NCBI GenBank assembly: GCA_948443845.1
Contig: CAOJUE010000008.1
Coordinates: 1,822 to 65,821 of the forward strand
DNA length: 64,000 bases
Source of the DNA: an uncultured Eubacteriales bacterium
GTDB taxonomy: Bacteria; Bacillota; Clostridia; TANB77; CAG-508
Reading direction: 5' to 3'
In this document: in pieces, positions 3,978 through 50,891 of the stretch
Position numbering within the stretch: position 1 is the stretch's first letter
Layout of the letters: every line of letters begins with the position of its first letter
Notes under the pieces: generated by a model
Database searches by the model: none
Seen by the model: the letters and a program-made list of their open reading frames with translations, nothing else
Told to the model about the DNA's origin: nothing
Made by a program: the position numbers and the translations under genes

Positions 3978-4580
3978 CTATTCTTCCTCTTTTCCTTCTG
4001 TTTCCTTTGTATTTTCCGTTTCTTCTCCTGCTGGCAAACCTTTAATTTTTTTGTTCGTAATATTTTTTACACGAACATTAACTTGTCCTACTTCCAAATC
4101 AGCTGTTTTGCTTAATACTTCTTTTATTTTTTCTTGGATTTGGGCAGATACGTCTTTAATCATCATATCTTTAGAAACTAAGGTTGTAACATAAACCACT
4201 AAGTTATTATTTTTATCCAAAATGGTTCGGCTCGAAATCGCTTCGATTCCTTGCACTTCTTTGACGATATTGGCAATAATGTTTTCCAAACTTTCTTTGG
4301 AAATAACCAATTTTCCTGCACCATTTTCTAAAGTAACACCATTTCTACCATCGTCTTCTGGTTCACTTCCGAAAAAGATACATTTTAAAGCAAGTAACAG
4401 TATAACAACTGCCATTCCAATTGTTAGTTTAATGGAAAAATCATCTTTCAAAATTAACGAAATCGTTTTCGTCACCACACTAATTTGGATAACATCCAAC
4501 ATAATCAAAATTAGCCCAATTGATATAACACTCATAATTAGTGAAAATAATATTAAAGATAGTTTTTCTAAAAATTTCAT
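3978..4580 (-). CDS. amaP: alkaline shock response membrane anchor protein AmaP-like
   Basis: 200 aa with N-terminal TMs, located downstream of the Asp23 gene. Confidence 0.7.
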   Translation of the reverse strand: MKFLEKLSLILFSLIMSVISIGLILIMLDVIQISVVTKTISLILKDDFSIKLTIGMAVVILLLALKCIFFGSEPEDDGRNGVTLENGAGKLVISKESLENIIANIVKEVQGIEAISSRTILDKNNNLVVYVTTLVSKDMMIKDVSAQIQEKIKEVLSKTADLEVGQVNVRVKNITNKKIKGLPAGEETENTKETEGKEEE

Positions 4581-39743: not shown

Positions 39744-41147
39744 ATGAATTTAATGGGAGATATAAAAGGAATATCTTATGGTGTATATTTAGATAGAAGA
39801 ATAAAGCCATCACGAGTATCTTTGCATAAAGATCTTAAACCTAGAGAAGTTTGTGAAAAATGTAAAAATAAAAGTGTTTGTAAATATGGAAACATCAGTA
39901 AATTTGAGAATGAAAAAATTTTCTCAAATAATATTGAATGTGAAGAAATGTATTTTACAATATCACGAAAGGCTTCATTAACCATTAGCAGAGATAAAAC
40001 GACAGGTAAAGAAAGAAAACAGAGTTTTACTGGTAACACAAAAGAAGAAGCAATTAGTAGAGCATTAGCTGCCAAAATTGAATTAGAAAAAAGTGGTGGA
40101 GTTAGAACAATCACAAAAAGCAATAAAACAATGGTTGATCTCATTTCAAACGTGATAGATGAGAGATTTAATTTAGGAAATATAAAACCGAATACCTGTA
40201 GAAGAAAAAGAAAAACATTGAAAAAGTTACAAAATGAAAAAGTTGCTAATATTCCTATTGTTAAGGTTAAACGAGATGATATAGTCAAATATTTAGAAAC
40301 ATTAAAGCCTTATTCTGAAAGTACGATAAAACAAATTTATGAACTAATTTGTATGGCTTTCGGTCAAGCAACTTATGAGCATATTATAAACGATAATTTT
40401 ATGACAGGTTGGAAAAGAGTTGAAAAGCCGAAAAGCGAATATAAAAGTCATAAAAGAAAAGCATTAACAATTGATGAGCAGAAAAAGTTAGTTGATTATT
40501 TAAACTCAGTAGATTACAAAGATTGTCGTCATAAATATCTACTTTTACTATTATTAAGTACAGGAATGAGAATCGGTGAAGCATTAGTGCTGGATTATGA
40601 AAAAGATATTGATTTAGAAACTGGCGAAATTCATATTAGAAGAACTCAAACAAAAAATTTGGAAGGAAAAGCAATTATCGGAGAAACAGCAAAAACATCT
40701 AATGGGCAAAGAACTTTAAATATGAATAATATAAGTAAACAAATCATTAAAAACATACTAGACCACAAAATTGAAAATAAGAATCATTTACTATTTTGTA
40801 AAGAAGATAAGACAATGTATACTGAAAATACGATAAATAGTGCTTTAAAGAGAATCGCAGTGAAGTTAGAAATTGGAATTTATAAAGAAGAAAACAAGCA
40901 AGGAAAACTAATTAAAAAGACTGATGTTCATACTCACATGTTAAGAGGAACTTTTGCTACAAGATGTGCTGAAGCTAAAATTGCACCTGCCGTTTTGAAA
41001 AAAATATTAGGACATTCTGACATTACTGTTACAATGCAATACTATGTGGATGTTGACACAGAATTTGAAAAATCCGAAAATAAAAATGTTGAAGATTATC
41101 TAAAAGATAAAGATATTTTCGGAATAGACTTTACACAAGAAACTTAA
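39744..41147 (+). CDS. int: tyrosine-type site-specific integrase (Tn916-Int-like) with a small Cys cluster in the N-terminal arm-binding region
   Basis: RIGEALVL, HTHMLRGTFATRC and LGHSDITVTMQYY catalytic motifs. CEKCKNKSVC near the N-terminus. Confidence 0.9.
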   Translation: MNLMGDIKGISYGVYLDRRIKPSRVSLHKDLKPREVCEKCKNKSVCKYGNISKFENEKIFSNNIECEEMYFTISRKASLTISRDKTTGKERKQSFTGNTKEEAISRALAAKIELEKSGGVRTITKSNKTMVDLISNVIDERFNLGNIKPNTCRRKRKTLKKLQNEKVANIPIVKVKRDDIVKYLETLKPYSESTIKQIYELICMAFGQATYEHIINDNFMTGWKRVEKPKSEYKSHKRKALTIDEQKKLVDYLNSVDYKDCRHKYLLLLLLSTGMRIGEALVLDYEKDIDLETGEIHIRRTQTKNLEGKAIIGETAKTSNGQRTLNMNNISKQIIKNILDHKIENKNHLLFCKEDKTMYTENTINSALKRIAVKLEIGIYKEENKQGKLIKKTDVHTHMLRGTFATRCAEAKIAPAVLKKILGHSDITVTMQYYVDVDTEFEKSENKNVEDYLKDKDIFGIDFTQET

Positions 41148-42986: not shown

Positions 42987-44465
42987 TTACCCAACTTCTT
43001 CTAAAACTTCATACCACTTTAAAATTTCATCCATACAATCCTTCAACTGTTCTTTATGCTTATCTTTTAAATGACTTTCCTTTACACGCTTCATAAGATT
43101 TGTCATTTCTCTTTGTACCATTTCATATTCACTACACTCAAAATCATACAACAACCCATTTTCTTGATAATAATTGTAAACATTTTCATCAAATCTATTT
43201 TCATACGCTGCAAATACATCGGTATAAGTATCTAAAGTTTCTTTTACACTCTTATGTCCTAATATCTTCTGCAAAACATGTGCTGGCATACCACTTTCAA
43301 TTTGCCTTGTTGCAAAGCTATGCCTTAATATATGCGAAGTACAATTTTTATTTTTGGTTATTTTATACTTTTGGCAAAAACGCTTAATTGCACAAGTTAT
43401 CATATTCGTAGTAATTAAATCTCCATTTTCTCTACAAAACAGTAGATTATTTTTATTATCAATCGCACTTGCTATGCAATCTTTTAAAATTTTCTCCACA
43501 TCAGCAGTCATTTTTATATCTCTATAACCACTATATGTTTTGGTTCTATCACCTAAAATAGTGATTTCCTTTCCATTTTCATCTTCTGAAACTGTTAAAG
43601 TATTATTGACATGGATTATCTTTTCTTCAAAATCAATGTCCTTATCTTTATCCAAAGCAAGGACTTCGCCCATTCTCATGCCTGTCGAAATCGACAACAA
43701 CCATTCATTTTGATATTGATGTGGCTTATCTAACGCATGAATTGTTTGAATAAACTTCCTTTGCTCATTTACCGTTAAAGCAACTACTTTGGAAAATGGC
43801 TGTTTACTTCTCGGCTTTCTAATTTCAGATGTTTTAATAGGATTGTGCAATATAACATTTTTCGCAATTGCTCTTTGAAAACCTGCATTTAACATGCCAT
43901 AATCCTTTTTAATAATGGAATCTGAATATCTCGTCCTTGTTGCTAAAAAATCTTTGATTTCATCTGTTGTTATTTTCTGAATAGGCTTATGCACTATTTC
44001 TGCTTTTGATAACCTTTTTAAAGTTTGTTTATTGGTAATATAGGCACTATCTCCAGTTTCATTTAACTTTTTTCTATCTTCAATAACTTCTAACATCATC
44101 CCATATAAAGTTGCATTGTTTTTACCAATATATTTTCCTGTTTCAATATCGCTCGAAACTTTATTTTTCTTACTGGCAACTTCCTTTTGGTTTTTGCCAT
44201 ATACAGAAGATGCTCGTTTTCCACTTTTAGTTGAACATTGTCCAACCCAATGCTTGTAAAAATAAAATTTATCACAATATTCATTATATTTTGTACAATT
44301 CTTACAAGTATCGCATTTGTTACAATCTTCTCTATTATTACAAATTGTTCTATCTTTACAATTTTTGCAATTTTCACATTCTGGCATCACTTTTTTTGTT
44401 TTCGGTCGCTTTTGTTTTTGAGTGGTTTGATAAAGTGTGCCTTCGCCATTTGCTCGTCTTTTCAT
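42987..44465 (-). CDS. int: tyrosine-type site-specific integrase with a 9-Cys insertion in the N-terminal domain
   Basis: RMGEVLAL, HILRHSFATRQ and LGHKSVKETLDTYTDV catalytic motifs. CENCKNCKDRTICNNREDCNKCDTCKNCTKYNEYC at residues about 29-65. Confidence 0.9.
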   Translation of the reverse strand: MKRRANGEGTLYQTTQKQKRPKTKKVMPECENCKNCKDRTICNNREDCNKCDTCKNCTKYNEYCDKFYFYKHWVGQCSTKSGKRASSVYGKNQKEVASKKNKVSSDIETGKYIGKNNATLYGMMLEVIEDRKKLNETGDSAYITNKQTLKRLSKAEIVHKPIQKITTDEIKDFLATRTRYSDSIIKKDYGMLNAGFQRAIAKNVILHNPIKTSEIRKPRSKQPFSKVVALTVNEQRKFIQTIHALDKPHQYQNEWLLSISTGMRMGEVLALDKDKDIDFEEKIIHVNNTLTVSEDENGKEITILGDRTKTYSGYRDIKMTADVEKILKDCIASAIDNKNNLLFCRENGDLITTNMITCAIKRFCQKYKITKNKNCTSHILRHSFATRQIESGMPAHVLQKILGHKSVKETLDTYTDVFAAYENRFDENVYNYYQENGLLYDFECSEYEMVQREMTNLMKRVKESHLKDKHKEQLKDCMDEILKWYEVLEEVG

Positions 44466-44624
44466 ATTTTATCCTCCTTAGACTAAATGAATCGAGTTTC
44501 CTCTTAAACGGAGTAGATTATGCTTTTAAAATTTAGTCAAGGCTGGGCATAGCCCATTTATTTTAGCCTTGATAAAATTTTATAAAGCATAGTATAATTG
44601 CGAAAAGAGGATAAGGAGTGTTTT

Positions 44625-46040
44625 TTATAAAAAACCAATTACTCTTTTATTTTCTATTTCATATTTACTACGATTTCGCTCTATTACAACATTTATATCT
44701 TCCAAAGTAATTTCATTCCTATTTACAAAACCACTACTTTTTATCACTCGATTTGCTTGTATCATTTTTAACTGTTCTGCAATATTTCTAATCTCTCTTG
44801 CATTTCCAAAATTTTTAATTTTTCTAATATCCAAAAAATATTGAATTAAGAACTCTTTACAATTTTCATTCACAAACAAATCATCTTCTTTTAAATACTT
44901 TTCAAATATTGCAAAAAGCTCATTATTTGTATAATTTTCAAAATCTATCACAAAATTCACTCTACTTTTCAATCCAGAATTCATTTCAATAAATTCCTTC
45001 ATCTCATTTGTATAACCTGCGAATATAACACAAAGTTTATCTTTTCGATTTTCCATTTCACGAATTAAAATATCAATCACATTATGCCCGTAGTCTCTTG
45101 AATACTTGTCCGAATAAAGTGAATATGCTTCGTCAATGAATAAGATTCCACCAGTCGCTTTTTCAATTATCTGCATCGTTTTTTCTTCGGTTTCGCCAAT
45201 ATGTCTGCCAACCAAATCTGCTCTTGTTACTTCCACAAAAATTTTTTCATTACTTAATATTTTCATTTCAGATAATATTTCTCCAAGTAGCCTTGCAACT
45301 GTTGTTTTTCCTGTTCCGGGATTGCCAAGAAAGAACATATGCAACATCGGAATCTTATTTTTGAATTTTTGCAATTTCAAATAATCAATAATCTCATTTA
45401 AAGTTGCTTTTACTTTTGATAAACCAACTAATTTTTGTAATTCTTCCATTGCATTTTTTGTTTTCTCTTCTTTCAAAAATTCTGCAAAATAACTGTCTTT
45501 CACAATGTGGCTTTTCAATTTATTGGCTTCGCTACATGCTATTAAAACTGCTTTTTTAGCCTCTTGTATGTTTTGCTTAGAGAAAAACTCTAAAACATTT
45601 GAATTTTTCTCTAACTCAAAACCATTTTCATGAAGAATATTGAAAATAGTAGATTTGTTCATTTCTTCCAAAGTTCCATTGTTTAAATCTATTATCCAAT
45701 AAAAATCCTTAAATCTCTTGTCTGTCGGTAAAAATTTTTCTTTAGTAGTTTTAACAATATAAACAGAATCGCCAAAAACTGTTGTAAAATTTCTATCATT
45801 CTCAATTTCTATACAAACATCGCCTAACTTACTTTTCAAAATATTTTGAATTAAATTGACAACTTTCTCTAAATGAATTTGCGTATAATCATTGATTACA
45901 ACATGATAATTCTTGATTGAAAAATCTTTTTCAACTGTCAAATCAACATATTTCAAATAATTATACAATTCTCTTTTGACTTTTTCATGAATTGCTAAAG
46001 TACGAATTTGCTTTTTGATTTTTTTATTCTTGTCGCTCAT
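44625..46040 (-). CDS. AAA+ ATPase of the CbbX/SpoVK/EccA type with an uncharacterised ~230-aa N-terminal region
   Basis: MFFLGNPGTGKTTVARLLGEIL Walker A, GGILFIDEAYSL Walker B, VIFAGY and GNAREIRN sensor-2-like motifs. Confidence 0.8.
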   Translation of the reverse strand: MSDKNKKIKKQIRTLAIHEKVKRELYNYLKYVDLTVEKDFSIKNYHVVINDYTQIHLEKVVNLIQNILKSKLGDVCIEIENDRNFTTVFGDSVYIVKTTKEKFLPTDKRFKDFYWIIDLNNGTLEEMNKSTIFNILHENGFELEKNSNVLEFFSKQNIQEAKKAVLIACSEANKLKSHIVKDSYFAEFLKEEKTKNAMEELQKLVGLSKVKATLNEIIDYLKLQKFKNKIPMLHMFFLGNPGTGKTTVARLLGEILSEMKILSNEKIFVEVTRADLVGRHIGETEEKTMQIIEKATGGILFIDEAYSLYSDKYSRDYGHNVIDILIREMENRKDKLCVIFAGYTNEMKEFIEMNSGLKSRVNFVIDFENYTNNELFAIFEKYLKEDDLFVNENCKEFLIQYFLDIRKIKNFGNAREIRNIAEQLKMIQANRVIKSSGFVNRNEITLEDINVVIERNRSKYEIENKRVIGFL

Positions 46041-46042
46041 TG

Positions 46043-46329
46043 TTACTCTTGCTCCAATAATTGTATAATTTTATAGCAATCCTTAAATCCTTGCTTATAC
46101 AAATACATACTTTCAACATGCATTAATTCATAAAAGCAATCAAAAAATCTGTCTTCTAATTCAAACTTATCTTTTTTATCTTTAAGTAAATCATCAACAA
46201 ATTTGTGCAACTTTTCTAGTAAATCATTGTATTGTTTTTCTTCGCTTTTATCGTTTTACTATGCACATTTTTGCTTTCCTGTAGGAAATAATCAATATTT
46301 TCCTGAAATTCATCTCTTATTTTTGACAT
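46043..46329 (-). pseudogene. small helical protein gene, apparent -1 frameshift in an A-run
   Basis: MSKIRDEFQENIDYFLQESKNVHSK..., then in another frame EEKQYNDLLEKLHKFVDDLLKDKKDKFELEDRFFDCFYELMHVESMYLYKQGFKDCYKIIQLLEQE. The stop overlaps the AAA+ start region. Confidence 0.45.
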
Positions 46330-46478
46330 AAAAAATCCTCTCCTTTTTAAAAATTTTTTTTAATTTTAGTTGAAAGTAGAGGACTACATATGCTATAATA
46401 GATGTGTAGTTCTACTTTCGAGTAGGACTCGACTGGGGAATAGTGCAATAGATTGACTGTCAGAGCACTATTTCCTTT

Positions 46479-46645
46479 TTATTTATCCAACTTTCTAATG
46501 CCTCTACGAATACCTTCCATTTTTGAAACATTTTCTTTCTTACAGTATTTTTCTAATATATCTAATGTTTCATCATCAACTCTTACTGTCAACTTCGTAT
46601 TCTTAGGATTTTCTGTCGGACGTCCTAGTTTTTTCGCAGTCAATA
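46479..46645 (-). CDS. ribbon-helix-helix (CopG-like) protein, 55 aa, absent from the ORF track
   Basis: TTG start 6 nt after AAGGAGG. (M)TAKKLGRPTENPKNTKLTVRVDDETLDILEKYCKKENVSKMEGIRRGIRKLDK. Confidence 0.7.
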
Positions 46646-46723
46646 TGCACCTCCTTTTCTGACTGTCATAAATATAATAACATTTAGACAGTCAAAAGTC
46701 AAGGATTTTTTATAATATTTTTA

Positions 46724-48019
46724 CTAAATTTCAAAATCATCTTCATACCAGTCAAAACCATCTGAATTTCGATGTTTCAAATACCATTCTTTTCTTGCTT
46801 GTTTGCTTAAATCTCCAAAGCAATGACTTATTGTTCGTGTCGGACCAACATAAGTCATATTTTCAAAGAGATAGGCAAGGTGTTTTAATGTTTCCAAAGA
46901 AAGGTTACACCAATACCTATCGCAATTCCTATCAATATTCCCTGCATAACGTACTTTCTCTTGTTTTTGCTTATATCTTCCAGTTGAGCCTTGTACTCCT
47001 GCATTTGATAACGAAGTTCGTCCTTCACCTTGTCCGATAAACTCTTCTCCAAAGTATTGGTTAATCTCATTTCTATTTGTTCTGGTGTCAGCTGGTCTCG
47101 TATTCTCGAATCCATTTTCTTGTACATATCTTTCATCTCGGTTATCCAGCCATAAATTTTGTCCATTACTTCCATTGGTAGAGTAGTCAATTCTGTTTTC
47201 AACTCTATCACTTGTTTTGTTTCTTGTTCCTTGTTCTTCATTTGTATTGGTTCTATTGAACTCTGATTCATTCTTTTCATTTCTTCTAAATCCATATTCC
47301 ATACTCTCCTTTAAATATTTTTTATCGTGCAAACTTTTATCTCTGCATTTTTGTCCGTCTGGTGTTATATAAGTGATGTATTTTTGAGTGTCTGTCCACA
47401 TAACTTGATAATTCAAACTTTCCATATTTTTGATATATTCGTCTTTTGTATTTGAGATAGACATACAATAATCAATATCATTCATCAATTTAAACTTCCA
47501 ACTTTGTCCTTTATTGGCAACAGTATACTCATTTTTACCAATGTCTTTGACTTCGTTTTTATGTTCTAAGTCAATTGTTTTCAAACCATTTTCTTCACAC
47601 AATTTATTAGAAAACTTTTTAATTTCTTCTAAATCTTTCTTTCCAATGTGAAACTTCTTTCCATTCTCAAAAGAAACAGAATTGATAACGAAATGATTGT
47701 GCAAATGTTCTCGGTCGGTATGCGTAGCCACCAGAACTTGAAAGCCTTTAAAATATTCGGCAAATTGCAAGCCAATTTCGTGAGCTTTTTCATAAGATAA
47801 ATCGTCTTTTGGAGAAAAAGATTGAATGAAATGGAATGCTGTATAACCATTTTTCTTATTAAATATATTTTTGACGGTTTCCATTTCATCATAACAGGTA
47901 GGAACGCTACAATCTTTTCCGCTTATCAAAAATCCATTTTGGGTCTTATGAGGATTTTCAACATATCTTATGAGTCCTTTTATATTGTTTTTTCGTGTGA
48001 GTACCTTAATAACTGCCAT
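46724..48019 (-). CDS. relaxase/mobilization nuclease (MobA/VirD2 family)
   Basis: MAVIKVLTRKNNIKGLIRYVENPHKT N-terminus and the ATHTDREHLHNHFVINSVSF histidine triad. The region after residue ~240 is low-complexity. Confidence 0.85.
   Translation of the reverse strand: MAVIKVLTRKNNIKGLIRYVENPHKTQNGFLISGKDCSVPTCYDEMETVKNIFNKKNGYTAFHFIQSFSPKDDLSYEKAHEIGLQFAEYFKGFQVLVATHTDREHLHNHFVINSVSFENGKKFHIGKKDLEEIKKFSNKLCEENGLKTIDLEHKNEVKDIGKNEYTVANKGQSWKFKLMNDIDYCMSISNTKDEYIKNMESLNYQVMWTDTQKYITYITPDGQKCRDKSLHDKKYLKESMEYGFRRNEKNESEFNRTNTNEEQGTRNKTSDRVENRIDYSTNGSNGQNLWLDNRDERYVQENGFENTRPADTRTNRNEINQYFGEEFIGQGEGRTSLSNAGVQGSTGRYKQKQEKVRYAGNIDRNCDRYWCNLSLETLKHLAYLFENMTYVGPTRTISHCFGDLSKQARKEWYLKHRNSDGFDWYEDDFEI
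46885..47295 (-). CDS. candidate nested out-of-frame gene inside the relaxase gene (136 aa, coiled coil plus C-terminal TM)
   Basis: ATG at 47293-47295, 10 nt after AAGGAG. MDLEEMKRMNQ...ELRYQMQEYKAQLEDISKNKRKYVMQGILIGIAIGIGVTFLWKH. It is the longest same-strand alternative-frame ORF in the window. Confidence 0.45.
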   Translation of the reverse strand: MDLEEMKRMNQSSIEPIQMKNKEQETKQVIELKTELTTLPMEVMDKIYGWITEMKDMYKKMDSRIRDQLTPEQIEMRLTNTLEKSLSDKVKDELRYQMQEYKAQLEDISKNKRKYVMQGILIGIAIGIGVTFLWKH

Positions 48020-48285
48020 ATTTGCTCCATATAGGTTTGAATTTCCTCAATGTCATTTTTTTCGATTAATCCCATGTTACATTTTCTTGCAATTTGATTG
48101 ATATTTATTCCGATTTTTCTTATCTCATTAAATATTTCTTTGTAACCAACAATGACAACAATCTTTTTATTCAAAGCTGATTTCATCATGTAATCTGTCA
48201 TTGTCAAATTTGCTTTTTGACTTCTTTGTTTAAGATAGTCGTAATCATCTTTTGTCAGTCTAATATGTATTTGCTTATCTTTCAT
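47980..48285 (-). CDS. mobC: MobC-family relaxosome accessory protein
   Basis: IRLTKDDYDYLKQRSQKANLTMTDYMMKSAL...IRKIGININQIARKCN. Confidence 0.85.
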   Translation of the reverse strand: MKDKQIHIRLTKDDYDYLKQRSQKANLTMTDYMMKSALNKKIVVIVGYKEIFNEIRKIGININQIARKCNMGLIEKNDIEEIQTYMEQIWQLLRYSHEKTI

Positions 48286-48289
48286 AACC

Positions 48290-48630
48290 TCGTCCTTTCT
48301 TTTAAAGGGGTTTTAGGGGCTTGCCCCTATCAAGATGCCTTTTGTCCGTTAGGTACACAAAGGCTAATCTTGCCAATCATAAATCTCCATTCATCCTTTT
48401 AAATTTCTAATTTTTTTGTACATATCTAAAATTTACTGTTACATCTGCTACAATTTCTTCTACCCCAGAAATTCCAATATTTTCTTTCGATTTATCAAGT
48501 GTTACCGATATGTTACTTTTTGTAACCGTTTGTGTTACAGGTTTGTAGCACTAATTTTCAATCAAGTGTTACTTATCTTTCCTTACAATTCCAAGCATTT
48601 GAAAGTAATGTAGCACTTGTAACAGAAAAA
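48290..48630. promoter_or_regulatory. candidate oriT / iteron region of element 2
   Basis: Hairpins TAGGGG-CTTG-CCCCTA and GCCTTTTGT...ACAAAGGC at 48310-48365. Seven TGTTAC/GTAAC(A/C) motifs and two GTAGCAC motifs between 48437 and 48623. Confidence 0.45.
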
Positions 48631-50418
48631 TTATTGTATGCTACCCATAAATTTGTCTTTTTTCAACCAAATAAATCGTTTTACTTGATTTCCTAAACGC
48701 AATTCTTTTGTATTGCTATTGTTCGAGACTTCAATATAACCATCGTCAGAGAGGTGTTTCAGCAATGTTTTTTTACTAACGGCAAATAATTCGTCTTGCT
48801 CATCGCAAAGCCTTTTAACAGCCTTGTGAGCCATATCTGGTATTAAATAGTAATACATATCGTCTTCATAGCCAATAAAGTTATTTCCACCTGCAAATTG
48901 ATAATTTGACTTCTCTTCGACGATGACACTTTTGCTTTGTAATAGTGAGTTCAACTTGGTCAAAAACTTAACAGATGGGTTATCCTCGCTAATTGCTTTT
49001 GATTGACTTATTGCTAAATCAATTGCAATCTCTAAGAACTCACTTAATAAATCGTCATAATCTCTTTGAGATATGATTTTATTGTTTAGCAAAAAATCAA
49101 TAAAATTTTCAAATCCTAACCAAAGCCAAGCTAATGATTCAGGTATTCTCGGATGTACTGTTACTGCATTGTCATCTAATTTGTTTTGTATTATTGCTCG
49201 ATATTCTATAAAATGATTTCTCAATTTTTCTAAAAACAGCTTTCTCGTATAATCTTCGTTTACATACAGATAAATATTTCTAATATACAAACTCATAATT
49301 GATTTAAAACAGCCATTTCTAGCAAATTCTTGTAATTCGGTTAGTTTTTCAATATTAATGTCGTCTTTGCTTAATTCAACAACAATATATCGCGCTGTTC
49401 CGCTTTCGCTTATATCTGGGGCAGATTCGCCAGTCAAAATGGCATTTCCTCTTGGTGGTTTTGAAATTTTCAAAGTGCTGTCGCAATTTAATTTATTTCT
49501 ACCAATACGATCGCCATAGGAACGCATAATAATTTGGGCAGTTTTATTCATGGATTGTTCGTCCGCTTTTGTAGACGGGTGGTAATCGTCAATGACTGTT
49601 AAAACATCTTTTAGTATAAAAGTTTGTTCAATAATACTGTTTGCTGTATCTCGAAATGAAATTGGTAAATCCGTATTGGTAAAATCTCCAAAGAAAGACA
49701 ATATTAATGATGCTAATGTACTTTTTCTTGCTCCAGTTTTTCCGATTAAAAACAATATTACTTTGGGTTCACAATTTACCATTTTCAAAAAGTGGTTCAG
49801 TGGTGATAAAAAAGCCATTGCGATTAGTGGAAATAGAATTCGATGTGGGATGAATTCTTTGCTTAATAATTTATCGATACATTTTTCGTTCGTATTAAGA
49901 AATCGTTCTGTTGGGTCTACTAATGAATATCTGGATAGTTTACCAGCTAATTCGATGTTTGTTTCAATCCCTTCATCTAAATATAAACCATTGCATAAAA
50001 ATATGAATTTACCATTGATTTCTTGCCAACCTGTATGGGTGTAGATATGATTTGTTGTAATATCATCGGCGGTACATTGAATCGCATGTCTAATACAATC
50101 TTTTACCATTTGCCCAATTTCAATATTACATTGCAATCCCCAATATTGTGTAATCCAATTTAATTTGTTAAATTCATTAGAGGGAATACGAATGTCTGGC
50201 AGATATTTTCCTGTACAATGAACGCCACCTATTGTTAAATATCTTTTTGGCTCGATTCCGTCATCTAAAAGAAGTTCACTTTTAGCATATGGCACAAAAT
50301 TGGCTAACTTTTTTGTAATAACATTGTCTTTTTTGTGAATTTCTTTGTATAAGCAATTATCAATGATTCGATATTCTGTATTAGAAAAGATGTTGTTACT
50401 TGTTTTAGTATCTTCCAT
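48631..50418 (-). CDS. DUF927-type P-loop helicase (element replication helicase, SCC Cch-like)
   Basis: 595 aa. ILFLIGKTGARKSTLASLILSFFG Walker A and LTVIDDYHP Walker B. The N-terminal half has no recognised motif. Confidence 0.65.
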   Translation of the reverse strand: MEDTKTSNNIFSNTEYRIIDNCLYKEIHKKDNVITKKLANFVPYAKSELLLDDGIEPKRYLTIGGVHCTGKYLPDIRIPSNEFNKLNWITQYWGLQCNIEIGQMVKDCIRHAIQCTADDITTNHIYTHTGWQEINGKFIFLCNGLYLDEGIETNIELAGKLSRYSLVDPTERFLNTNEKCIDKLLSKEFIPHRILFPLIAMAFLSPLNHFLKMVNCEPKVILFLIGKTGARKSTLASLILSFFGDFTNTDLPISFRDTANSIIEQTFILKDVLTVIDDYHPSTKADEQSMNKTAQIIMRSYGDRIGRNKLNCDSTLKISKPPRGNAILTGESAPDISESGTARYIVVELSKDDINIEKLTELQEFARNGCFKSIMSLYIRNIYLYVNEDYTRKLFLEKLRNHFIEYRAIIQNKLDDNAVTVHPRIPESLAWLWLGFENFIDFLLNNKIISQRDYDDLLSEFLEIAIDLAISQSKAISEDNPSVKFLTKLNSLLQSKSVIVEEKSNYQFAGGNNFIGYEDDMYYYLIPDMAHKAVKRLCDEQDELFAVSKKTLLKHLSDDGYIEVSNNSNTKELRLGNQVKRFIWLKKDKFMGSIQ

Positions 50419-50513
50419 TGCAGTAATCTCCTTTCTTTTTTCTATGTTCTAGAATATAGAAAAAGTTTTTGAAAAATTTTTCATAGACACATTTTACCTG
50501 TTTAAACCAAAAA

Positions 50514-50564
50514 ACAAAAAGTAACAATTTTCCGAGCCTAGCGATTCTTACTTTATCAAATTTG
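50514..50564. repeat. about 50-bp repeat copy A flanking the small HTH gene
   Basis: AAAAAGTAACAATTTTCCGAGCCTAGCGATTCTTACTTTATCAAATTT with internal AAAGTAA/TTACTTT arms. Confidence 0.7.
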
Positions 50565-50642
50565 TTTTTCGTTGATAATAAAGGATTTTGGGCAAGAAAA
50601 AAGTCCTAAACCTATAAAAGTTTAGAACTTTTAAAAATATTT

Positions 50643-50891
50643 TTAATTTTTTTCTCTTTTTTCTTGTAACCAACTTTTAAGTGCTGATTCTTCAATCTTT
50701 AAATTTCCAATTTTAATGGAAGGTATATCATCTCTTTTCAATAATTCAGTTGCACTATTCACATTAATCCCTAAAATTTTTGATACATCTTTTGCAGAAA
50801 GCATTTTAATTGTGTCTTGTTGTTTTATCTCTTGCAAAGAGTTATTAATGCTTTTTAGTAGCTCTAATAATTCATTCGTATTTTCGCCCAT
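50643..50891 (-). CDS. excisionase/MerR-like helix-turn-helix DNA-binding protein
   Basis: LSAKDVSKILGINVNSATELLKRDDIPSIKIGNLKIEESALKSWL. Confidence 0.7.
   Translation of the reverse strand: MGENTNELLELLKSINNSLQEIKQQDTIKMLSAKDVSKILGINVNSATELLKRDDIPSIKIGNLKIEESALKSWLQEKREKN

Follow-up and report, generated by a model that had tools for sequence, protein, structure and literature searches.

Introduction

In the plasmid RSF1010, the mobilization gene mobB sits within mobA/repB, in a different reading frame (PMC2200642; PMC5572225), and in ColE1-type plasmids the relaxase gene mobA (mbeA) holds mobB and mobD (mbeB/mbeD), again nested and in another frame (PMC5935869). We here describe a reading frame placed in a similar way in an integrative mobilizable element from an uncultured Eubacteriales bacterium, located in a window (the whole stretch of DNA that was analysed) of 64,000 nucleotides with a GC content of 29%. 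Within the gene for the relaxase of this element, which is MobA/VirD2-like and lies on the minus strand, a second open reading frame (ORF) of 136 codons spans positions 46885–47295. MobB of RSF1010 is about the same size as the product of this ORF, and Parker and Meyer are said to have found in 2007 that relaxase transport signals require MobB.

An earlier note on this DNA had drawn attention to the ORF and read it as an overprinted mobB-like gene. This reading gains support from the openness of the frame in homologues, from the suppression of synonymous change in the relaxase frame, and from a value of 0.27–0.32 in the nested frame for the ratio of nonsynonymous to synonymous change (dN/dS, or ω). 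Taken as a whole, the overlap is probably a dual-coding segment that gives rise both to the relaxase and to a membrane-anchored, MobB-like accessory protein. The decisive evidence is conservation together with frame-specific selection, rather than the openness of the frame in a single gene.

Results

A reading frame nested in the relaxase gene

The nested ORF begins 724 nucleotides past the relaxase start and is therefore read in the +1 frame, from an ATG at 47295–47293 to a TAA stop codon at 46885–46887. As reported before, it lies on the same strand as the relaxase gene, out of frame with it, and starts just behind the relaxase catalytic domain. Specifically, the start falls at relaxase codon 242, the end of the conserved N-terminal domain in our alignment of relaxase homologues (A1). 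The Shine-Dalgarno (SD) sequence AAGGAG that had been noticed ahead of the ATG is indeed present (Table 1). Among the same-strand, out-of-frame nested ORFs of the window, the 136-codon ORF is the longest, and the next longest has 93 codons, matching the earlier count. In a promoter scan, nothing resembling a strong minus-strand promoter turned up immediately ahead of the nested start, and translation from the mobC-relaxase transcript is therefore assumed.

The product had been described as a coiled-coil-like protein ending in a transmembrane helix, and this description fits. The C-terminal end of the protein reads ...VMQGILIGIAIGIGVTFLWKH, with residues 116–134 hydrophobic. The low-confidence structural model predicted by AlphaFold2 from an alignment of 20 nested-protein sequences (A2) is all-helical, with helices at residues 3–9, 41–65, and 71–135. 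A cluster of K and R residues stands before the hydrophobic helix, and the only residues after it are K-H, so that the positive-inside rule predicts a tail-anchored protein whose N-terminus and bulk are cytoplasmic. Inspection of the N-terminal sequence by eye shows no signal peptide.

The host gene encodes a protein of 431 residues. Pfam family PF03432 matches residues 19–146 (E = 6.9e-37), and residues H100, D102, H105, H107, and H109 are invariant in alignment A1, as are the columns of an HxDxxHxH-type motif. With both the histidine-rich nuclease motif and the PF03432 match present, the gene qualifies as a MobA/VirD2-like relaxase gene. Homologues of the relaxase number more than 3,600; those of full length have 411–436 residues, and the 431-residue frame is full-length in hundreds of them.

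In alignment A1 the relaxase is composed of a conserved N-terminal domain (N-domain, to residue ~241), a variable low-complexity linker (residues ~242–378), and a conserved acidic C-terminal tail, which has the consensus LSKQARKEW..KHRNS.SFDW(F/Y)EDD.EI in the relaxase frame and is a candidate coupling-protein recognition or transport signal. The linker is rich in N, R, E, K, G, S, and T, consistent with the earlier observation that the relaxase frame turns low-complexity over the stretch occupied by the nested ORF. Across the family, the tail stays in frame with the N-domain over this neutral linker of 137 codons. The N-domain region contains another +1-frame ORF, of 87 codons (47629–47892, minus strand); the +1-frame ω there is about 1, and it is never the longest +1 ORF in any homologue examined. 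This ORF is most likely due to chance.

Conservation of the nested frame among relaxase homologues

For comparison at the DNA level, we assembled nine closer homologues (59–91% relaxase identity) and genes from seventeen species-representative genomes (38–53%). A +1 ORF of 119–168 codons, at gene positions ~700–1100, is present in all 24 full-length homologues (38–91% identity), the 119-codon version being found in L001, L003, and L004. Openness of the alternative frame in homologues was a check that the earlier note had proposed, and it gives 24 open frames among the 25 relaxase homologues examined. The exception, L005 (966–1985), has an in-frame deletion of 81 codons in the linker and retains the relaxase tail. 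In the +2 frame, no homologue examined has an ORF of more than 52 codons. In two further loci the dual-coding stretch is broken, by a 1-nucleotide deletion in L083 (3125–4207) and by a 107-nucleotide deletion in L084 (3231–4207).

The start signals are conserved as well. The nested ATG and a GGAG or GGA core 9–12 nucleotides upstream are found in 25 of 25 homologues, and the SD core is retained even where the relaxase residues that it encodes shift from LKE to SKG or LKG. The +1 products share one build: they start with M(D/N)LEE(M/L)Kx(x)N, continue through a hydrophilic stretch into a long heptad-like helix, and close with a K/R cluster and a hydrophobic helix, the stop codon coming 1–3 residues past that helix. 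The hydrophobic C-terminal tail is present in all homologues although its sequence varies, and the architecture of start motif, coiled coil, and transmembrane tail holds at 20–36% amino-acid identity, where the nucleotides can no longer be aligned.

Compared with the window over the overlap, all eight homologues with 59–91% overall relaxase identity, and all but one of the distant ones, have more identical amino acids in the nested frame than in the relaxase frame (for example, identities of 82 versus 66%, 62 versus 47%, and 53 versus 37%).

Frame-specific selection in the overlap

Overlap-aware dN/dS values were calculated from nine sequences with a script of our own that works in the manner of OLGenie. 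The nested frame has a dNN/dNS of 0.27 [0.19–0.37], the relaxase frame in the overlap a dNN/dSN of 0.88 [0.65–1.22], and the +2 control frame a dNN/dNS of 0.94; the bias of dNN/dNS is taken up in the Discussion. With the plain Nei-Gojobori method applied region by region, the relaxase frame has an ω of 0.13 in the N-domain, 1.12 in the overlap, and 0.32 in the tail, and the +1 frame has an ω of 0.98, 0.32, and 0.94 in the same three regions. In other words, constraint sits in the relaxase frame on both sides of the overlap and in the +1 frame within it.

Synonymous divergence (dS) shows the same exchange of frames. Suppression at synonymous sites, which the earlier note had named as a test, is observed: the relaxase-frame dS drops about threefold, from 0.95 in the N-domain to 0.33 in the overlap. 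The +1-frame dS in the overlap rises to 0.86, the neutral level, while +1 codon positions 1 and 2 are constrained. Constraint thus switches into the +1 register with a period of three nucleotides, indicating protein coding and excluding plain nucleotide-level constraint. Amino-acid-level selection spans the whole length of the nested protein.

In a reciprocal test, we held the nested protein fixed and randomised its codons. The expectation under this randomisation is 7–12 stop codons in the relaxase frame, and the relaxase frame was open in 0 of 2,000 trials per gene for each of 25 genes (P < 0.0005 each). With 7–12 stops expected and none present, the relaxase frame is actively held open.

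By these measures, the stretch 46885–47295 is truly dual-coding, both frames being open and the nested frame evolving under purifying selection. The two frames play unequal roles in it: the nested frame bears the sequence constraint, and the relaxase linker, to judge from its ω, is nearly unconstrained save for having to stay open.

Occurrence in Clostridia and absence from annotation

To define how far the arrangement extends, we used 76 complete PF03432 relaxase genes from species-representative Clostridia genomes (GC 25–63%) and counted a +1 ORF when it had at least 100 codons, started after codon ~200, and ended in a hydrophobic C-terminal stretch. Such an ORF is present in 67 of the 76 genes, and none has one in the +2 frame. 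Kyte-Doolittle maxima in this gene set are 1.6–2.9 for the +1 frame, compared with no more than 0.63 for the +2 frame. In distant relaxases from Ruminococcus, Flavonifractor, Oscillospiraceae, and others, with gene GC contents of up to 63%, the linker and tail differ and the nested feature is the same. Most of these have an AAAGGAG-type SD sequence and an M(N/S)S start, and many have an (L/M)E(E/N)LKxxN motif. In three more distant lineages, the nested-frame ω is 0.21, 0.49, and 0.58, each with a confidence interval lying below 1, and the relaxase-frame ω in the overlap is ~0.8–1.06.

Annotated proteins present a different picture. Searched exhaustively with HMMER, 1.84 billion protein representatives yielded only three called relatives of the nested protein, two of which come from broken or short, low-coverage copies. 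One relative (P0124) reflects a nested frame that gene callers report only in broken copies of the family. Another (P0125, 114 residues) is, by eye, a mix of both frames and comes from short contigs, one of them labelled cov 0.51. Since standard gene callers skip genes nested in another frame, the nested gene is in effect invisible to annotation. A tblastn search with the nested protein against 72,556 plasmids gave no match. A feature search of the ESM Atlas gave nothing at or above 0.9; its one row at 0.87, with partial Activator-TraM membership, serves as a lead only.

These data leave room for a broader proposal, namely that a nested tail-anchored gene is an ancient, near-universal hidden part of Clostridia MobA/VirD2-type relaxase genes, and that the linker is its read-through. 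We put this forward as a possibility that we would not, at present, bet on.

The host element and its genes

The features of the element, of the relaxase gene, and of the nested gene are listed in Table 1. The mobC/nikA-like gene is upstream of the relaxase gene in all close loci, and the two genes overlap by 40 nucleotides (47980–48019, minus strand), from the relaxase start to the mobC stop. An identical 40-nucleotide overlap is found in all close loci, and its conservation suggests translational coupling. The element contains no type IV secretion system genes; lacking a secretion system of its own, it is a mobilizable element and must dock to helper machinery.

The P-loop protein occupies the position that a primase/helicase-like replication or processing protein has in such elements, and a related locus, L094, has a faint DUF927 match. 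Less than 3 kb from the integrase gene of the element lies a second tyrosine-integrase gene (39744–41147, plus strand; PF00589), which could point to a neighbouring or older element in the same place.

Table 1. Coordinates of the nested gene, the relaxase gene, and the other features of the element (positions in the window)
Feature	Positions	Strand	Basis or remark
Nested +1-frame gene, 136 amino acids, mobB-like; dual-coding, corresponds to relaxase linker residues ~242–378	46885..47295	minus	ORF list, homologues, ω
Shine-Dalgarno sequence AAGGAG, 10-nucleotide spacer to the nested ATG; inside the K-E codons of relaxase 'YLKE'	47306..47311	minus	sequence
Motif L-E-E-[ML]-K-x-x-N, nested residues 3–10	47266..47289	minus	E4, K7, and N10 invariant or nearly so in A2
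Predicted C-terminal transmembrane helix, nested residues 116–134	46894..46950	minus	K/R cluster before, only K-H after
Relaxase gene, 431 amino acids, MobA/VirD2-like, PF03432	46724..48019	minus	ORF, Pfam (E = 6.9e-37), alignment A1
Relaxase conserved N-terminal domain, residues 1 to ~241, single-coding	47297..48019	minus	frame-0 ω 0.13, +1-frame ω 0.98
Relaxase C-terminal tail, ~52 residues, single-coding in the relaxase frame	46727..46884	minus	A1 columns; ω 0.32 in frame 0, 0.94 in +1
Integrative mobilizable element	42987..50891	minus	gene content; same order in loci L086–L094
Helix-turn-helix protein	50643–50891	minus	first in the gene order of the element
P-loop protein (GKTGARKST), 595 amino acids	48631–50418	minus	no Pfam match
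mobC/nikA-like relaxosome accessory gene	47980..48285	minus	PF21983 at 1.1e-19, PF05713 at 1.3e-13
Ribbon-helix-helix (RHH) protein	46479–46643	minus	downstream of the relaxase gene
ORF of 55 amino acids	between the RHH and AAA ATPase genes	minus	ORF list
AAA ATPase	44625–46040	minus	element gene
Tyrosine integrase	42987–44465	minus	PF00589; last in the gene order of the element

Discussion

A dual-coding segment and its proposed product

In the evolutionary sense the nested gene is real, as judged from its openness, its conserved start signals, and the purifying selection that acts on it. We are confident, on the strength of these features, that the 136-codon frame corresponds to a real gene that is translated separately; if so, a role as a MobB-like transfer accessory, proposed by analogy, seems to us slightly more likely than not.

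The reading that we favour, a dual-coding segment encoding a relaxase and a MobB-like accessory, can be put as follows. A single mobC-relaxase transcript would be read in two frames. Translation in frame 0 would yield the 431-residue relaxase, in which the linker between the catalytic domain and the acidic tail is merely kept open, and translation from the internal SD sequence and ATG would yield a tail-anchored coiled-coil protein of 136 residues and 16 kDa. From its N-terminus, this protein would have a short LEE(M/L)KxxN helix and a disordered stretch, followed by a long coiled-coil-like helix and a C-terminal membrane anchor. By analogy with MobB of RSF1010/R1162 and pC221, it may hold or deliver the relaxase-DNA complex at the membrane, where a helper element would supply the coupling protein and type IV secretion system that receive it, with the acidic relaxase tail as a candidate recognition signal. 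A joint structure prediction of the relaxase and the nested protein scored 0.01, which we count neither for nor against the proposal.

Several observations weigh against this interpretation. First, the earlier note had called so long an alternative frame improbable by chance, and this was overstated as far as one gene is concerned: when synonymous codons are randomised with the relaxase protein fixed, the P value for an ORF at least as long as the one observed is 0.06 for this gene and 0.0005–0.11 for the homologues. Codon shuffling within the region gives P ≤ 0.0035. Only relaxase codons with a T at position 2 can create a stop in the +1 frame, and such codons are scarce in a hydrophilic linker, so the openness of a single gene is weak evidence. 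Second, dNN/dNS is biased downward under strong host-frame constraint, with a value of 0.52 for the close set in the N-domain, where the genes do not overlap; for this reason the Nei-Gojobori values by region were added. Third, L005 has an intact relaxase and no nested gene, which makes the nested gene dispensable to the relaxase gene itself. Fourth, the AlphaFold2 model of the nested protein is weak, with a predicted local distance difference test (pLDDT) score of 55.

Homology searches add to these points. Pfam assigned no family to the nested protein and gave sub-threshold noise only. DUF334 (PF03904), the family to which the membrane part of pC221 MobB belongs (2.3e-65), has no match among the 20 nested proteins of A2 and three from distant lineages. 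An hhalign comparison with pC221 MobB aligned only the 10–12 residues of an ELKRxN motif, at E = 0.017–0.022 and a probability below 3%, which is not significant. Finally, translation, membrane insertion, and a transfer role of the nested protein are inferred.

Alternative explanations

Of the other explanations, the one that holds up best accepts a real nested protein and gives it a different role, either in entry exclusion or immunity, like MbeD of ColE1, or in the regulation of relaxase translation or stability. A precedent exists in the ColE1-type relaxase genes, which carry nested mbeB and mbeD, MbeD being described as a putative entry-exclusion protein (PMC5935869). A surface or entry-exclusion function is nevertheless unlikely for a protein whose predicted topology is nearly all cytoplasmic and that has no signal peptide apparent by eye, and the amino-acid-level selection along its whole length argues against a purely translational-coupling function. 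We consider a role of this kind unlikely, yet worth keeping in mind beside the MobB-like one.

A further explanation invokes programmed frameshifting, by which a membrane-anchored relaxase isoform would be made instead of, or besides, the free 136-residue protein. The two frames share one mRNA, a membrane-tethered relaxase is functionally plausible, and in L006, L010, L013, and L094 the +1 frame is open for 30–40 codons before the conserved ATG. In the window and in most homologues, however, a +1 stop codon (TAA or TGA) lies five codons before the ATG, in the SD region, leaving almost no room for an upstream shift. Moreover, a conserved SD sequence with a conserved ATG is the signature of independent initiation, and no slippery motif was noticed, though no dedicated search was made. 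We judge frameshifting to be improbable.

A compositional artefact would mean that the +1 frame is open merely because the hydrophilic linker has few T residues at codon position 2, and that no protein is made. The randomisation with the relaxase fixed, which already yields a mean longest +1 ORF of 60–100 codons and the P value of 0.06 given above, is what speaks for it. Composition leaves unexplained the conserved ATG and SD sequence, the hydrophobic C-terminal helix that every lineage retains while its sequence changes, and the higher identity of the +1 frame, and it is contradicted by the +1 ω of 0.32, the neutral +1 third positions, the relaxase-frame ω of ~1, and the threefold drop in dS. 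An explanation in these terms is accordingly very improbable.

Least probable of all is a nucleotide-level constraint that mimics coding selection (an RNA structure, an internal origin of transfer, or a promoter), which would likewise suppress relaxase-synonymous sites in the overlap but does not account for a three-nucleotide periodicity in the +1 register with neutral third positions (dS 0.86, versus 0.95 in the N-domain), nor for a protein architecture that persists where nucleotides are unalignable; nor does a strong promoter-like site on the minus strand immediately precede the nested start.

The earlier note had also raised the alternative that a frameshift fused or split an originally different C-terminus. 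We reject it, since both frames are intact and conserved family-wide and the relaxase frame is also conserved past the nested stop, in the tail; with that tail in frame with the N-domain throughout the family, the linker is read straight through.

Implications

If the nested gene functions as proposed, a conserved mobilization component of gut Clostridia elements is absent from annotations and from models of transfer. The gene is a concrete target for studying how mobilizable elements without a coupling protein of their own dock to a helper secretion system. Furthermore, the locus offers a clean natural case of dual coding, useful for benchmarking methods that detect overlapping genes.

Comparison with known mobB genes

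The mobB-in-mobA precedent of RSF1010 that the earlier note had invoked is borne out by the literature (PMC2200642). The same layout is found at this locus: as in RSF1010/R1162, a small ORF in a different frame is contained wholly in a MobA/VirD2-type relaxase gene that has mobC as its neighbour. The settings differ, in that RSF1010 is an IncQ plasmid whereas the present gene resides on the chromosome, in an integrative mobilizable element of AT-rich Clostridia. The relaxases differ also; that of RSF1010 carries a primase domain and the one described here a short conserved tail. ColE1-type plasmids resemble this locus in having accessory genes fully within the relaxase gene, but their relaxase belongs to another subfamily (MOB-HEN), and the nested genes there are two, one of them for a putative exclusion protein.

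The staphylococcal-type arrangement of pC221/pC223 is comparable in further respects. There, as here, mobC is followed by a PF03432 relaxase gene, and a +1-frame mobB codes for a coiled coil with a C-terminal membrane segment. Specifically, in pC221 (NC_006977, L095) the mobB ORF, in the +1 frame, begins past the region for the relaxase catalytic domain, overlaps the last ~270 nucleotides of the relaxase gene, and then continues beyond it. In its product, a coiled coil rich in K, E, and Q leads into membrane helices at the C-terminus. Two differences stand out: pC221 mobB overlaps the 3′ end of mobA only, whereas the gene described here is wholly nested in a relaxase gene that runs on into a conserved tail, and pC221 MobB has at least two hydrophobic stretches, compared with one transmembrane helix in the nested protein. 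In the pC221 record, mobB crosses the record origin (4278–4555 and 1–421), and it is missing from the PLSDB gene table.

The sequence ELKRQN near the N-terminus of pC221 MobB resembles the LEE(L/M)KxxN start of the Clostridia nested proteins. If this hint of common descent with MobB of the pC221 type, and possibly of IncQ plasmids, proves true, one dual-coding layout would extend across the MOBQ/MOBP radiation. By analogy, the layout and architecture described here are those of mobB, the closest known cases being mobB of RSF1010/R1162 and of pC221. New as far as its sequence is concerned, the nested gene, on the evidence of its reading frame and predicted product, joins the known arrangement in which mobB lies inside a relaxase gene.

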